A stretch of 64,000 nucleotides of DNA, from NCBI RefSeq assembly GCF_003019035.1, contig NZ_CP027447.1; one strand, 5' to 3'. This stretch comes from Escherichia coli (lineage in GTDB: Bacteria > Pseudomonadota > Gammaproteobacteria > Enterobacterales > Enterobacteriaceae). The translations under genes were made by a program, and so were the position numbers. The first letter of the stretch is position 1, and every line of letters begins with the position of its first letter. Positions 25,692 to 52,325 of the stretch are shown here, piece by piece. The notes under the pieces are model-generated. The model did not search any database, was not told the DNA's origin, and saw nothing but the letters and a program-made list of their open reading frames with translations.

Positions 25692-26204
25692 TCAATTCCT
25701 TTGTAAATCCAGCAAATCATCAATGCCAGTTTCACTTGCGGTATAAAAACTATCGGACTGAAAAACACACGGGCGACCTTGCTGATTAAAGGTCATCAGA
25801 ATCAAAAACGCGTTAGGTGCCAGACCATTTCCTGAAATACCCCGCCAGATAACCAGATCCTGAATGCCGTTACGATCAAGATCGGCACGGTAAAGTTGCG
25901 CATTACCCGCCATATTTTGCAGCACCCCCACAGGCACAGACCAGGATTTACCGGCGCGATCTTTACCGTTCAATTGCCATTCACTATCATCATTTGGCAT
26001 CTTTTCAAGCGTCACGCCAGCAACGCCGACTTTTCTAAAATGCCAGGTTTGCTCGGCATCATAAGGCATGGTCAGGAGAGGTTTCAGCGCCCGCTTTTGC
26101 GCGTATTCGCTGTCACTCATCGGCAGATATTCGGTAAAGCTGGTGGCCTGTGCAGGCAGCACTAAGCTCAATAAAAAAGCGCACATCCCTGTTCTGATGT
26201 TCAA
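25692..26204 (-). CDS. secreted hypothetical protein, 170 aa (signal peptide ...LSLVLPAQA), between invertase and hycI
   Basis: Signal-peptide-like N-terminus; TTG at 26204 or ATG at 26186 as start. No family recognised. Confidence 0.5.
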   Translation of the reverse strand: MNIRTGMCAFLLSLVLPAQATSFTEYLPMSDSEYAQKRALKPLLTMPYDAEQTWHFRKVGVAGVTLEKMPNDDSEWQLNGKDRAGKSWSVPVGVLQNMAGNAQLYRADLDRNGIQDLVIWRGISGNGLAPNAFLILMTFNQQGRPCVFQSDSFYTASETGIDDLLDLQRN

Positions 26205-33505: not shown

Positions 33506-33629
33506 CAGGCATTCCTCAGGTGATTGTCATTTTTGACGAAAACATGCCGATGAAATGTCATTTTCGACACTCATCGACACGCCCATCCCCAAACAGGCGT
33601 AACGCCTGCAAAACGGGCAAAGCCTCAGC

Positions 33630-34091
33630 TCATGCTGCCGGGCTTTGTCCCTTTACCAGTTGGCTTAAATTCACCGGCACATTGTTTTCAATGGCGGTAT
33701 ATAAGCTGTCGTAAACGCCAGCGATTTTTTCGAGATAGTGTTCCAGAACCTGTTCGCGATCGCGGATGTTGACCTTGCCATCAATCATGCCGTCAATGCT
33801 CAGTTGCGCCTGCGCAATCCGCTGTTTGTCTTCACCCTCTTTCGTTTCGACGTAATACTCGATGGTGTGGCTGTTAAAGCCATCCGCCAGGGTGACGTAA
33901 ATACGAAAATGTTCAAAAAGGACGAAACAGAGTTCTTTGTCCGGCGCGCAGCTCATGGCGTGATGCAGGCGCGCTTTCGATAACGTGATCCCCTGAACCA
34001 GCGAATTACAGTAGATGTGCCACTGGTCCTGTAGGCGACGATGCCGCTGTGCGATGTAATCGGCTTTCTCGCTTATTTCCCAAATAGTCAT
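33630..34091 (-). CDS. hycA: formate hydrogenlyase regulatory protein
   Basis: Recognised sequence; first gene of hyc operon. Confidence 0.9.
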   Translation of the reverse strand: MTIWEISEKADYIAQRHRRLQDQWHIYCNSLVQGITLSKARLHHAMSCAPDKELCFVLFEHFRIYVTLADGFNSHTIEYYVETKEGEDKQRIAQAQLSIDGMIDGKVNIRDREQVLEHYLEKIAGVYDSLYTAIENNVPVNLSQLVKGQSPAA

Positions 34092-34125
34092 TGTCAGGTT
34101 ACCCGTTTAACAGAGATGCCAGCTT

Positions 34126-34143
34126 TAAGCATTTTTTATGCCA
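34126..34143 (-). promoter_or_regulatory. sigma-54 promoter of hyc operon (- strand reads TGGCAT-N8-TGC)
   Basis: GG and GC elements spaced as in -24/-12 consensus, upstream of hycA. Confidence 0.6.
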
Positions 34144-34186
34144 ACTTTTAATTCATTGTTATTAAAACGATTTTTAAGCTAAAGAT

Positions 34187-34230
34187 GAATTTCGTCGCCG
34201 TGTCGACGTGTCATTTCGACATCATCGACA
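34187..34230. promoter_or_regulatory. FhlA upstream activating region (repeated TTTCGTCG / TGTCGACG / TTTCGACA / CATCGACA motifs)
   Basis: Repeated motifs in the hycA-hypA intergenic region; FhlA is known to bind here. Confidence 0.5.
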
Positions 34231-34256
34231 TTATTTACCGCAGGGATAATCAATGC

Positions 34257-34272
34257 TGGCACAATTATTGCT
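34257..34272 (+). promoter_or_regulatory. sigma-54 promoter of hyp operon (TGGCAC-N5-TTGCT)
   Basis: Near-consensus -24/-12 element ~30 bp upstream of hypA. Confidence 0.65.
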
Positions 34273-34302
34273 TGTAGCTGGCAATAGTTAATGGGAGGCG
34301 AT

Positions 34303-34653
34303 ATGCACGAAATAACCCTCTGCCAACGGGCACTGGAATTGATCGAACAGCAGGCCGCAAAACACGGCGCAAAACGCGTAACTGGGGTCTGGCTCAAAAT
34401 TGGCGCATTTTCTTGTGTCGAAACCAGCTCTCTTGCCTTTTGTTTTGATCTGGTTTGCCGCGGCAGCGTGGCGGAAGGTTGTAAACTGCACCTCGAAGAA
34501 CAAGAGGCCGAATGCTGGTGTGAAACATGCCAACAGTATGTGACGCTACTGACCCAGCGCGTCCGCCGCTGTCCACAGTGTCATGGTGACATGCTACAGA
34601 TTGTGGCAGACGACGGTTTACAGATTCGGCGGATAGAAATAGACCAGGAGTGA
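34303..34653 (+). CDS. hypA: hydrogenase nickel incorporation protein
   Basis: Recognised sequence (MHEITLCQ...); ORF track extends 4 codons upstream. Confidence 0.9.
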   Translation: MHEITLCQRALELIEQQAAKHGAKRVTGVWLKIGAFSCVETSSLAFCFDLVCRGSVAEGCKLHLEEQEAECWCETCQQYVTLLTQRVRRCPQCHGDMLQIVADDGLQIRRIEIDQE

Positions 34654-37993: not shown

Positions 37994-40072
37994 ATGTCAT
38001 ATACACCGATGAGTGATCTCGGACAACAAGGGTTGTTCGACATCACTCGGACACTATTGCAGCAGCCCGATCTGGCCTCGCTGTGTGAGGCTCTTTCGCA
38101 ACTGGTAAAGCGTTCTGCGCTCGCCGACAACGCGGCTATTGTGTTGTGGCAAGCGCAGACTCAACGTGCGTCTTATTACGCGTCGCGTGAAAAAGACACC
38201 CCCATTAAATATGAAGACGAAACTGTTCTGGCACACGGTCCGGTACGCAGCATTTTGTCGCGCCCTGATACGCTGCATTGCAGTTACGAAGAATTTTGTG
38301 AAACCTGGCCGCAGCTGGCCGCAGGTGGACTATACCCCAAATTTGGTCACTATTGCCTGATGCCACTGGCGGCGGAAGGGCATATTTTTGGTGGCTGTGA
38401 ATTTATTCGTTATGACGATCGCCCCTGGAGCGAAAAAGAGTTCAATCGTCTGCAAACATTTACGCAGATCGTTTCGGTCGTCACCGAACAAATCCAGAGC
38501 CGCGTCGTTAACAATGTCGACTATGAGTTGTTATGCCGGGAGCGCGATAACTTCCGCATCCTGGTTGCCATTACCAACGCGGTGCTTTCCCGCCTGGATA
38601 TGGACGAACTGGTCAGCGAAGTCGCCAAAGAAATCCATTACTACTTCGACATTGACGATATCAGCATCGTCTTACGCAGCCACCGTAAAAACAAACTCAA
38701 CATCTACTCCACTCACTATCTTGATAAACAGCATCCCGCCCACGAACAGAGCGAAGTCGATGAAGCCGGAACCCTCACCGAACGCGTCTTCAAAAGTAAA
38801 GAGATGCTGTTGATTAATCTCCACGAGCGGGACGATTTAGCCCCCTATGAACGCATGTTGTTCGACACCTGGGGCAACCAGATTCAAACCTTGTGCCTGT
38901 TACCGCTGATGTCTGGCGACACCATGCTGGGCGTGCTGAAACTGGCGCAATGCGAAGAGAAAGTATTTACCACTACCAATCTGAGCTTACTGCGCCAGAT
39001 TGCCGAACGTGTGGCAATCGCTGTCGATAACGCCCTCGCCTATCAGGAAATTCATCGTCTGAAAGAACGGCTGGTTGATGAAAACCTCGCCCTGACCGAG
39101 CAGCTCAACAATGTTGATAGTGAATTTGGCGAGATTATTGGCCGCAGCGAAGCCATGTACAGCGTACTTAAACAAGTTGAAATGGTGGCGCAAAGTGACA
39201 GTACCGTTCTGATCCTCGGTGAAACTGGTACAGGTAAAGAGCTGATTGCCCGCGCGATCCATAATCTCAGTGGGCGTAATAATCGCCGCATGGTCAAAAT
39301 GAACTGCGCGGCGATGCCTGCCGGATTGCTGGAGAGCGATCTATTTGGTCATGAGCGTGGGGCTTTTACCGGTGCCAGCGCTCAGCGCATTGGTCGTTTT
39401 GAACTGGCGGATAAAAGCTCACTATTCCTCGATGAAGTGGGCGATATGCCGCTGGAGTTACAGCCGAAGTTGCTGCGTGTATTACAGGAACAGGAGTTTG
39501 AACGTCTTGGCAGCAACAAAATCATTCAGACGGACGTACGTTTAATTGCCGCGACTAACCGCGATCTGAAAAAAATGGTCGCAGACCGAGAGTTCCGTAG
39601 CGATCTCTATTACCGCCTGAACGTATTCCCGATCCACCTGCCGCCACTACGCGAGCGTCCGGAAGATATTCCGCTGCTGGCGAAAGCCTTTACCTTCAAA
39701 ATTGCCCGTCGTCTGGGGCGCAATATCGACAGCATTCCTGCCGAGACGCTGCGCATCCTGAGCAACATGGAATGGCCGGGCAACGTGCGTGAGCTGGAAA
39801 ACGTCATCGAGCGCGCGGTATTGCTGACACGTGGCAACGTGCTGCAGCTGTCATTGCCTGATATTGCTTTACCAGAACCTGAAACGCCGCCTGCCGCAAC
39901 GGTTGTCGCTCAGGAGGGCGAAGATGAATATCAGTTGATTGTTCGCGTGCTGAAAGAAACTAACGGCGTGGTTGCCGGACCTAAAGGCGCTGCGCAACGT
40001 CTGGGGCTGAAACGCACGACCCTGCTGTCACGGATGAAGCGACTGGGAATTGATAAATCGGCATTGATTTAA
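37994..40072 (+). CDS. fhlA: formate hydrogenlyase transcriptional activator (sigma-54 enhancer-binding protein)
   Basis: Recognised sequence starting MSYTPMSD; AAA+ GETGTGKE motif; ORF track extends 12 codons upstream. Confidence 0.9.
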   Translation: MSYTPMSDLGQQGLFDITRTLLQQPDLASLCEALSQLVKRSALADNAAIVLWQAQTQRASYYASREKDTPIKYEDETVLAHGPVRSILSRPDTLHCSYEEFCETWPQLAAGGLYPKFGHYCLMPLAAEGHIFGGCEFIRYDDRPWSEKEFNRLQTFTQIVSVVTEQIQSRVVNNVDYELLCRERDNFRILVAITNAVLSRLDMDELVSEVAKEIHYYFDIDDISIVLRSHRKNKLNIYSTHYLDKQHPAHEQSEVDEAGTLTERVFKSKEMLLINLHERDDLAPYERMLFDTWGNQIQTLCLLPLMSGDTMLGVLKLAQCEEKVFTTTNLSLLRQIAERVAIAVDNALAYQEIHRLKERLVDENLALTEQLNNVDSEFGEIIGRSEAMYSVLKQVEMVAQSDSTVLILGETGTGKELIARAIHNLSGRNNRRMVKMNCAAMPAGLLESDLFGHERGAFTGASAQRIGRFELADKSSLFLDEVGDMPLELQPKLLRVLQEQEFERLGSNKIIQTDVRLIAATNRDLKKMVADREFRSDLYYRLNVFPIHLPPLRERPEDIPLLAKAFTFKIARRLGRNIDSIPAETLRILSNMEWPGNVRELENVIERAVLLTRGNVLQLSLPDIALPEPETPPAATVVAQEGEDEYQLIVRVLKETNGVVAGPKGAAQRLGLKRTTLLSRMKRLGIDKSALI

Positions 40073-50873: not shown

Positions 50874-52325
50874 TTATTGACGTGCGGCCAGCATAGCGGT
50901 CAGTTTTTCAGCCCAGGCTTTGGTTTCCGGTAAATCCACCACCGGCTGACTGTAGTGACCGCGGTTGTCCGGGGCGACAGGCGTGGTGGCGTCGATAATC
51001 AGCTTGTCGGTGATCCCCGCCGGGCTTGAGCCTGGGTCGAGTTCCAGCACGGACATATTCGGCAACTGCACCAAATCCCCTGCCGGGTTCACTTTCGAGG
51101 AGAGCGCCCACATCACCTGCGGCAGGTTGAACGGATCAACGTCTTCATCGACCATAATCACCATCTTCACATAGCCCAGACCGTGCGGCGTGGTCATCGC
51201 ACGGAGGCCCACCGCGCGGGCAAAGCCACCGTAGCGTTTTTTGGTGGAGATAATCGCCAGCAGGCCGTGGGTGTACATGGCGTTTACCGCCTGCACTTCC
51301 GGGAACTCGGCTTTCAGTTGCTGATACAGCGGCACGCAGGTGGCTGGCCCCATCAGGTAGTCGATTTCCGTCCACGGCATCCCGAGATAGAGCGATTCAA
51401 AAATGGGTTTGCTGCGATAAGAGACGTTATCGATGCGCACCACGGTCATGTTGCGCCCGCCGGAGTAGTGCCCGGTAAACTCACCGAACGGCCCTTCGAT
51501 TTCACGTTTACGGCTTTCGATGACACCTTCGAGGATCACTTCTGAACCCCACGGCACATCAAAACCAGTCAGCGGGGCGGTGGCGATCGGGTACGGGCTT
51601 TCACGCAGCGCGCCTGCCATTTCGTACTCGGACTGATCATATTTCAGCGGCGTGGCCCCCATCAGCGTGATGATCGGATCGTTACCGAGGGTGATCGCAA
51701 TCGGCAGATCTTCACCGCGCTCTTCCGCTTTATGCAGATGCAGGGCGATATCGTGCATCGGCACCGGTTGCAGGCCGAGCTTACGTTTGCCCTTCACTTC
51801 CATGCGGTAGATACCGACGTTCTGCTTGCCGAAGTTATCCGGATCAAGCGGATCGCGGGAAACCACGCACGCTTTGTCGAGATAGAAACCGCCATCGCCA
51901 TCGTTTAAACGAAACAGCGGCAGGATATCGAACAGGTTGATCTCGTCTCCATCGACGGTGTTCTGCGCCCAGGCTGGATTGGCTCGGCGTTCCGGGGCAA
52001 TCGGGAAGTTGTCCCAGCGGCGGATAAACTCATCGATCTGTTTTTTAACCGGGGTATTTGGCGGCAGGCCGAGGGAAATCGCGTGGTTCTGCCAGGAACC
52101 GATGGTGTTCATCGCCACGCGGGCATCGGTAAAGCCGCGAATATTATCAAACCACAGCGCTGGCGCGCCGTCGCCGATACGCCCGGTGGCGTTGGCTGCG
52201 GCTGCCAGATCCGGTTCTGCGTTCACCTCTTCGCTGATTTTCAGCAATTGCCCATGGTCGTCGAGCGCCCTACCAGGCCATCGGCGTAACCGGCACGGAT
52301 ACCGGCGAGCGTTTTCATACTGCAC
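50874..52325 (-). CDS. UbiD-family decarboxylase (EcdC/YclC-like); homology begins ~ALDDHGQ, N-terminal ~20 codons of the ORF derive from out-of-frame upstream sequence
   Basis: UbiD-like sequence through most of the ORF; N-terminus disrupted by the junction near 52270. Confidence 0.7.
   Translation of the reverse strand: MQYENARRYPCRLRRWPGRALDDHGQLLKISEEVNAEPDLAAAANATGRIGDGAPALWFDNIRGFTDARVAMNTIGSWQNHAISLGLPPNTPVKKQIDEFIRRWDNFPIAPERRANPAWAQNTVDGDEINLFDILPLFRLNDGDGGFYLDKACVVSRDPLDPDNFGKQNVGIYRMEVKGKRKLGLQPVPMHDIALHLHKAEERGEDLPIAITLGNDPIITLMGATPLKYDQSEYEMAGALRESPYPIATAPLTGFDVPWGSEVILEGVIESRKREIEGPFGEFTGHYSGGRNMTVVRIDNVSYRSKPIFESLYLGMPWTEIDYLMGPATCVPLYQQLKAEFPEVQAVNAMYTHGLLAIISTKKRYGGFARAVGLRAMTTPHGLGYVKMVIMVDEDVDPFNLPQVMWALSSKVNPAGDLVQLPNMSVLELDPGSSPAGITDKLIIDATTPVAPDNRGHYSQPVVDLPETKAWAEKLTAMLAARQ

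Follow-up and report, generated by a model that had tools for sequence, protein, structure and literature searches.

The divergent hycA-hypA intergenic region of an Escherichia coli strain: two back-to-back sigma-54 promoters and two predicted FhlA-type enhancers

The stretch of Escherichia coli DNA analyzed here (64 kb; hereafter the window) contains the divergently transcribed genes hycA and hypA. Positions 34092-34302 make up the whole 211-bp gap between them, as judged from the map of open reading frames and from the RefSeq annotation of the identical record; the hycA start codon reads CAT on the plus strand at 34089-34091, and the ATG of hypA begins at 34303 (Table 1). Both sources also place hycB-I to the left of hycA and hypB-E together with fhlA to the right of hypA. 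HycA is an antagonist of FhlA. The gene for the cognate enhancer-binding activator, fhlA, sits downstream within the hyp transcription unit, inside the window. Hydrogen production by formate hydrogenlyase is under the control of this region, whose characterization dates back to 1990. In the original prediction, 34092-34302 was taken for the divergent sigma-54 control region of the hyc and hyp operons and was called well-known biology; the coordinates, the flanking genes and the alignment with E. coli K-12 all agree with this assignment, and sigma-54 sites of the region have indeed been published for K-12 and Salmonella.

Table 1. Positions of genes and of observed or predicted control elements in and around the hycA-hypA gap (window coordinates).
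Feature	Position	Strand	Description
hycA	33630-34091	-	First gene of hycABCDEFGHI; Pfam HycA_repressor PF11046 (E 2e-90); RefSeq annotation
hypA	34303-34653	+	First gene of hypABCDE-fhlA; Pfam HypA PF01155; RefSeq annotation
fhlA	37994-40072	+	GAF, sigma-54-interaction AAA+ (Sigma54_activat) and Fis-type helix-turn-helix (HTH_8) domains; Pfam and RefSeq annotation
hycA 5' leader (predicted)	34092-34117	-	26 nt; predicted start 34117, 12 nt downstream of the C of the -12 GC
hyc operon sigma-54 promoter	34128-34143	-	TGGCATAAAAAATGCT; TGGCAT-N6-TGC; GG 34142/34141 (-25/-24), GC 34130/34129 (-13/-12)
AT-rich spacer with IHF-like core	34144-34186	-	Core TAACAATGAATTA at 34161..34149, one mismatch to WATCAANNNNTTR
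UAS1, predicted FhlA-type upstream activating sequence	34186-34231		Heptamers AATTTCG (34189) and CATTTCG (34212); pentamers TGTCG (34201), TGTCA (34209), CGACA (34217) and CGACA (34226); 13-bp palindrome TGTCATTTCGACA (34209-34221); FhlA-matrix site TGTCGATGATGTCG (minus strand, 34217-34230)
hyp operon sigma-54 promoter	34257-34272	+	TGGCACAATTATTGCT; TGGCAC-N5-TTGCT; GG 34258-59, GC 34270-71
hypA 5' leader (predicted)	34283-34302	+	20 nt; ribosome-binding site GGGAGG at 34293-34298
UAS2, second predicted FhlA-type enhancer	33525-33580		TGTCATTTTTGACG (33525-33538), TGTCATTTTCGACA (33556-33569), then CTCATCGACAC

A 1,031-bp query running from hycA to hypA is 100% identical to E. coli SCU-301. 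Of the 5,426 complete E. coli genomes, 5,425 contain this segment, which carries the annotations hycA, hypA and hypB. Colinearity with SCU-301 starts at 25695, within a gene for a hypothetical protein adjoining hycI. Positions 1-25694 belong to a Mu-like transposable prophage and hold late genes of it (tail sheath, tape measure, DUF935 portal, terminase); the closest phage is Escherichia phage PhiKM (94% identity), and the phage end reads ...GCGCGGCGCA. None of the complete E. coli genomes in the collection carries this prophage at this site; related prophages, up to 98% identical, lie at other sites in about 40 genomes. Farther to the right, at 52259-52269, the window lacks 305 bp that are present in SCU-301 (locus L002, 38641-38944), the BLAST pieces overlapping by 11 bp at the junction. 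This deletion removes the junction of the genes for subunits B and C of hydroxyarylic acid decarboxylase and leaves a 483-codon open reading frame at 50874-52325.

Both -24/-12 elements that the original prediction had read at 34126-34143 (minus strand) and 34257-34272 (plus strand) are present at these positions. Read on the minus strand, 34143 to 34126 gives TGGCATAAAAAATGCTTA, and in either element the distance from GG to GC is 10 bp, which is sigma-54 geometry. Each element points toward its adjoining gene, with 38 nt between the C of the -12 GC and the ATG of hycA and 32 nt in the case of hypA. When this C is taken as position -12, promoter geometry predicts transcriptional start sites at 34117 (minus strand) and 34283 (plus strand), 166 bp apart.

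Motifs of this kind might be fortuitous matches in an AT-rich gap that have no promoter function. The loose pattern TGGCAY-N5-WTGCW leaves some room for such a reading: it is matched exactly twice in the 64 kb, by the hyc and the hyp element (0.6 matches expected), and at least two matches occurred anywhere in the sequence in 17 of 100 shuffles. However, the two matches lie in a single 211-bp gap, diverge from one another, stand at fixed distances from their start codons and take the top two matrix scores. With the RpoN matrix built from 186 sites/promoters, as printed in PMC7658346, the best of approximately 128,000 positions on both strands is the hyp element (18.65 bits), followed by the hyc element (13.43 bits). 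The sigma-54 promoters of norV and hydN, which we sought in the window as internal controls, are absent because the prophage, and not the usual asc-hydN-nor neighborhood, fills its left 25.7 kb.

In K-12, ChIP-seq of sigma-54 recovered the sites OS27 (hycA; TTGGCACAAAAAATGCT) and OS28 (hypA; CTGGCACAATTATTGCT), which are flagged as previously confirmed, lie 128 bp apart and have start distances of 26 nt and 20 nt, respectively (Bonocora et al., 2015; PMC4591121); the leader lengths and the 128 bp between the corresponding 17-mers are the same in the present strain. Genomic SELEX shows the RpoN holoenzyme binding in the K-12 hycA-hypA gap (PMC8743547), and in Salmonella both the hycA promoter (TGGCATGGAAAATGCTTA) and the hypA promoter (TGGCATAAATATTGCTTT) are bound by sigma-54 in ChIP-chip experiments, with transcripts that depend on this sigma factor (PMC3844500). 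By analogy with these orthologous sites, sigma-54 occupancy and rpoN dependence would be expected in the present strain as well. Together with the invariance of both elements in 70 of 70 aligned gaps (see below), the bound K-12 and Salmonella sites refute a chance origin of the two motifs, to which we assign a negligible probability.

The two promoters resemble each other beyond the sigma-54 consensus. Positions 34117-34148 and 34252-34283 form an imperfect inverted repeat of 32 nt with 75% complementarity. It reaches to a common GCTGGCA whose end coincides with each predicted start, an extended similarity found in Escherichia only.

The hycA-hypA gap of K-12 MG1655, the comparison proposed along with the original prediction, has the same length of 211 bp and differs by seven substitutions (34138, 34154, 34167-68, 34236, 34254-55) and no indels. 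The mismatch in GG/GC spacing that had been named as the outcome speaking against the assignment is absent, and no substitution falls within any GG, GC or UAS1. One substitution does alter a promoter hexamer: at 34138, position -21 of the hyc promoter, the present strain carries T where K-12 carries C, and the interpretation is hence refined in that the hyc -24 hexamer of this strain is TGGCAT, whereas that of K-12 is TGGCAC.

Such a change within the -24 hexamer could alter, and then probably weaken, hyc expression in this strain; the RpoN matrix score drops from 14.9 bits with C to 13.4 bits with T, and the exact 53-mer around the T is rare in E. coli (93 of 5,221 genomes). Against this reading, which we consider very unlikely, stands the distribution of the T itself. 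Most of the other Enterobacteriaceae have it at this position (T in 52 of 70 regions, C in 18), it occurs in the sigma-54-bound hycA promoter of Salmonella (PMC3844500), and in the 186-promoter matrix only C is more frequent (C 122, T 43; PMC7658346). For these three reasons, we regard the -21 T as a neutral or mild variant.

Conservation across the Enterobacteriaceae was followed with a HypA scan of one genome per species, which yielded 80 loci, 73 of them with hycA divergent from hypA. Both sigma-54 elements align without gaps and with unchanged GG/GC spacing in all 73 divergent loci. The distance from the -12 C to the ATG of hycA varies only between 36 and 39 nt, and that to the ATG of hypA between 29 and 36 nt, except for two insertion-bearing loci (44 and 177 nt). 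In an alignment of the 70 non-identical gaps, from which column conservation was derived, TGGCA and TGC are invariant in both promoters (70/70; in the hyp promoter TTGC, 70/70), while the bases of the N5 spacers vary. Conserved blocks comprise positions 34093-34110 of the hycA leader, the hyc -12/-24 element, the TTTTTAA...TTG columns of the AT-rich tract, the segment 34205-34231 (GAC-R-TGTCATTTCGWCA...TCGWCAT), the hyp -24/-12 element and the ribosome-binding site of hypA (GGAGG).

The leader segment 34093-34110 (GTCAGGTTACCCGTTTAA) is nearly invariant in about 70 species even though it lacks a strong Shine-Dalgarno match. Positions 34162-34190, between the IHF-like core and the enhancer, are hypervariable even inside the genus Escherichia, with at least two very different haplotypes (for instance, that of the window and K-12 vs. 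that of loci L004, L005 and L008). One locus labeled as a Citrobacter sp. metagenome-assembled genome (L003; DXKH01000118.1) is 100% identical to the window over hycB, hycA and hypA, and another contig from that bin (L012) bears a true Citrobacter-type copy; the bin appears to be contaminated with E. coli DNA.

Searches for other kinds of control elements returned little. An Rfam scan of the whole window gave no family at the gathering score, and hence no known RNA element in either leader. For a sigma-70 promoter, only one weak antisense match was found between 33600 and 34700 (1.1 expected), which is no evidence for one. A terminator-like hairpin at 34193-34208 (arms CGTCG/CGACG, in the upstream part of UAS1) is at chance level (one vs. 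1.5 expected) and not credible, and the FNR consensus scan gave only a match with two mismatches at 34152-34165, inside the IHF tract, which is not informative.

Between the promoters, the original prediction had noted repeated FhlA-type motifs, and these repeats are real. The four pentamers of UAS1 fall within 60 bp, against 0.27 expected, a density calculated for a pentamer that was picked after the sequence had been seen, and one that makes UAS1 the joint densest segment of the window, together with 33525-33579 in the hycA-hycB gap. The TGTC at 34209-34212 is invariant in 70 of 70 gaps. With the FhlA matrix (13 sites of the TGWC-N6-GWCA type; PMC7658346), the minus-strand site of UAS1 scores 16.1 of a possible 17.1 bits and ranks second in the window; this matrix derives from characterized E. 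coli sites, very likely including those of UAS1 and UAS2, so that its hits locate sites already known and are no independent discovery. UAS1 extends from -69 to -114 relative to the predicted hyc start and from -52 to -97 relative to the predicted hyp start, which is close. Its placement with respect to hyc agrees with the approximately 70-150 bp at which enhancers lie upstream of the promoters that they activate.

An idealized 16-bp FhlA palindrome, CATTTCGTACGAAATG, is given in PMC4987338, where it is quoted from Leonhartsberger 2000. It has no match in the window with up to three mismatches, and at four to five mismatches the enhancers are not singled out. Only half-sites of it are present (CATTTCG at 34212, AATTTCG at 34189), and site A of UAS2 departs from it by five mismatches. 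Because the quoted string is an idealized consensus, the missing match weakens the consensus test and not the assignment of the FhlA sites; the real sites are half-palindromic. A half-site pattern that we tried instead, WCATTTYCGWC, finds the UAS2 sites and misses UAS1 owing to the 5-bp spacer present there.

The AT-rich tract between UAS1 and the hyc promoter contains the IHF-like core. By itself, such a core is at chance level, given that the window holds 41 matches with one mismatch where 38.7 are expected. In the alignment, the corresponding 13-mer is an exact match to the consensus in 21 of the 70 species and deviates by one mismatch in 26 of 70, and its conserved columns are the consensus-critical CAA....TTR. 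This agrees with the binding of IHF between the enhancer and the hyc promoter that Hopper et al. reportedly described in 1994.

The second enhancer-like element, UAS2, extends the control system leftward. It reads GTCATTTTTGACG...TGTCATTTTCGACACTCATCGACAC (33525-33580), with two 14-bp sites 31 bp apart followed by CTCATCGACAC, and differs from the UAS1 block by just two single-base indels. Its site at 33556-33569 attains 17.1 bits with the FhlA matrix and ranks first in the window, that at 33525-33538 ranks fifth, and the element is conserved in about 70 species. UAS2 lies 703-758 bp upstream of the predicted hyp start (-703 to -758), inside the hyc transcription unit. The interpretation is thereby refined: the control system is not confined to the hycA-hypA gap, to which UAS2 adds a second FhlA-type enhancer. 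In the same intergenic segment, directly past the hycA stop codon, a hairpin (CAGGCG-TAA-CGCCTG) is found at 33594-33608. At this position Citrobacter and Salmonella also have hairpin-forming sequences, which differ from that of E. coli, and genera with a short hycA-hycB gap have no hairpin; the structure may be a partial terminator or a processing site between hycA and hycB.

As to which of the two elements serves the hyp promoter, comparative data and earlier work, on which we base both the pairing of enhancers with promoters and the proposed binding of IHF, point in the same direction. The Böck laboratory is said to have placed the hyp enhancer between hycA and hycB. In Phytobacter, in Kosakonia sp. 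S29 and in a related metagenome-assembled genome, the gene divergent from hypA is hycI-like, and no hycA or hycB is found within 2 kb upstream of hypA. These loci have kept the hyp sigma-54 promoter and carry, approximately 110-165 bp upstream of it, a two-site element of the UAS2 type (GGTCATTTTTGACG, 18 bp, CGTCATTTTCGTCA). The retention of a UAS2-type pair next to hyp when hyc is absent is, as judged from sequence comparison, independent support for the proposed UAS2-hyp assignment, and UAS2 is probably the main hyp enhancer.

A different arrangement is conceivable, in which UAS1 is bidirectional, FhlA bound there switches on hyc as well as hyp, and UAS2 has an auxiliary role or another target altogether. 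UAS1 is indeed situated between both promoters, and its distances to the hyp GG and to the hyc GG both change in steps of about one helical turn. Moreover, Trabulsiella and Yokenella retain a single central cluster of repeats between a hyf-like operon and hyp; there, the two promoters are still divergent, and the product of the first gene of the partner operon is only about 53% identical to HycB (we take the gene as hyfA-like). Yet only some 52 bp separate the end of UAS1 from the hyp start, an unusually short distance for a sigma-54 enhancer, and the element found upstream of hyp in the absence of hyc has the architecture of UAS2, its two sites being spaced 31-32 bp apart. Independent indel events are few in number, and the hyp-side insertions of 11-13 bp are extra repeat units of the CATCGACAG type, so that the step may reflect only the length of the unit. 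Considering also the reported location of the hyp enhancer between hycA and hycB, we judge a UAS1 shared by both operons to be a rather unlikely alternative to UAS2 as the main hyp enhancer.

The spacing data themselves were collected from the 70 gaps. From the hyc GG to the enhancer core the distance is 45, 56-59 or 66-68 bp, from the core to the hyp GG it is 47-49 or 59-63 bp (single outliers, 41 and 51 bp), and from GG to GG it is 94, 104-105, 114-118 or 128-129 bp (one outlier, 109 bp). Steps of about one helical turn on either side of the enhancer suggest face-of-helix constraints, a pattern that we treat as a lead only, the indel events being few and some of the insertions being themselves extra repeat units. 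If this lead is followed to its end, UAS1 would be in helical register with both promoters, and one FhlA assembly would be placed to act on both closed complexes, or both would share it or compete for it; we view this proposition as speculative and improbable. If it were true, such a dual-register enhancer would depart from the textbook arrangement of one enhancer per promoter, and the -21 T allele of the hyc promoter could shift the balance between the expression of structural and of maturation genes.

Collectively, these data make it very probable that the region is the hycA-hypA control region of E. coli, with two back-to-back sigma-54 promoters and FhlA/UAS control as originally proposed, and no observation speaks against this reading. 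The hyc promoter would drive hycABCDEFGHI (hydrogenase 3/formate hydrogenlyase) leftward, and the hyp promoter would drive hypABCDE-fhlA (hydrogenase maturation and the activator itself) rightward. At each -24/-12 element, sigma-54 RNA polymerase would wait in a closed complex. As formate builds up during fermentation, FhlA bound to the TGTCA/CGACA cluster of UAS1 would reach the polymerase of the hyc promoter across about 100 bp, with IHF bending the AT-rich tract (core 34149-34161) to facilitate the contact, and hydrolysis of ATP would open the promoter; looping and opening are described here in line with established knowledge of enhancer-binding proteins. The hyp promoter would most likely be served mainly by the near-identical UAS2 (33525-33580). 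Feedback would be negative through HycA and positive through fhlA.

For a region that is already known, this analysis matters little beyond annotation. It provides a coordinate map of every element in this strain, in which seven substitutions spare all critical bases, a 70-species footprint of the constrained bases, and comparative support for an enhancer in the hycA-hycB gap that would serve hyp.

The closest known system is that of K-12 MG1655 (b2725/b2726), which has in common with the present strain the gene pair, the length of the gap, the 17-mer of the hyp promoter, UAS1, the spacing and the leader lengths, and differs by the substitutions described above, including the one in the hyc -24 hexamer. 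In Salmonella Typhimurium LT2, hycA (STM2853) and hypA (STM2854) are likewise divergent, the hyc promoter also reads TGGCAT...ATGCTTA, and the S. enterica region (L027) aligns over the entire gap; the differences lie in the N5 spacers, in the hyp -24 hexamer (TGGCAT), in the length of the gap (208 bp) and in the GG-to-GG distance (114 vs. 116 bp here). The fdhF, hydN-hypF and hyf promoters share the activator FhlA, the TGWC-N6-GWCA matrix and an enhancer about 100 bp upstream (PMC7658346; PMC4987338). However, these are single promoters, whereas the hyc-hyp locus combines two back-to-back promoters with a second enhancer located within the neighboring operon. The zraP-zraSR region likewise has two divergent sigma-54 promoters around a cluster of activator-binding sites, and Leonhartsberger et al. 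reportedly described there, in 2001, one central ZraR enhancer that serves both. In contrast to that central enhancer, the comparative data for hyc-hyp favor a separate and distant enhancer for the hyp promoter.
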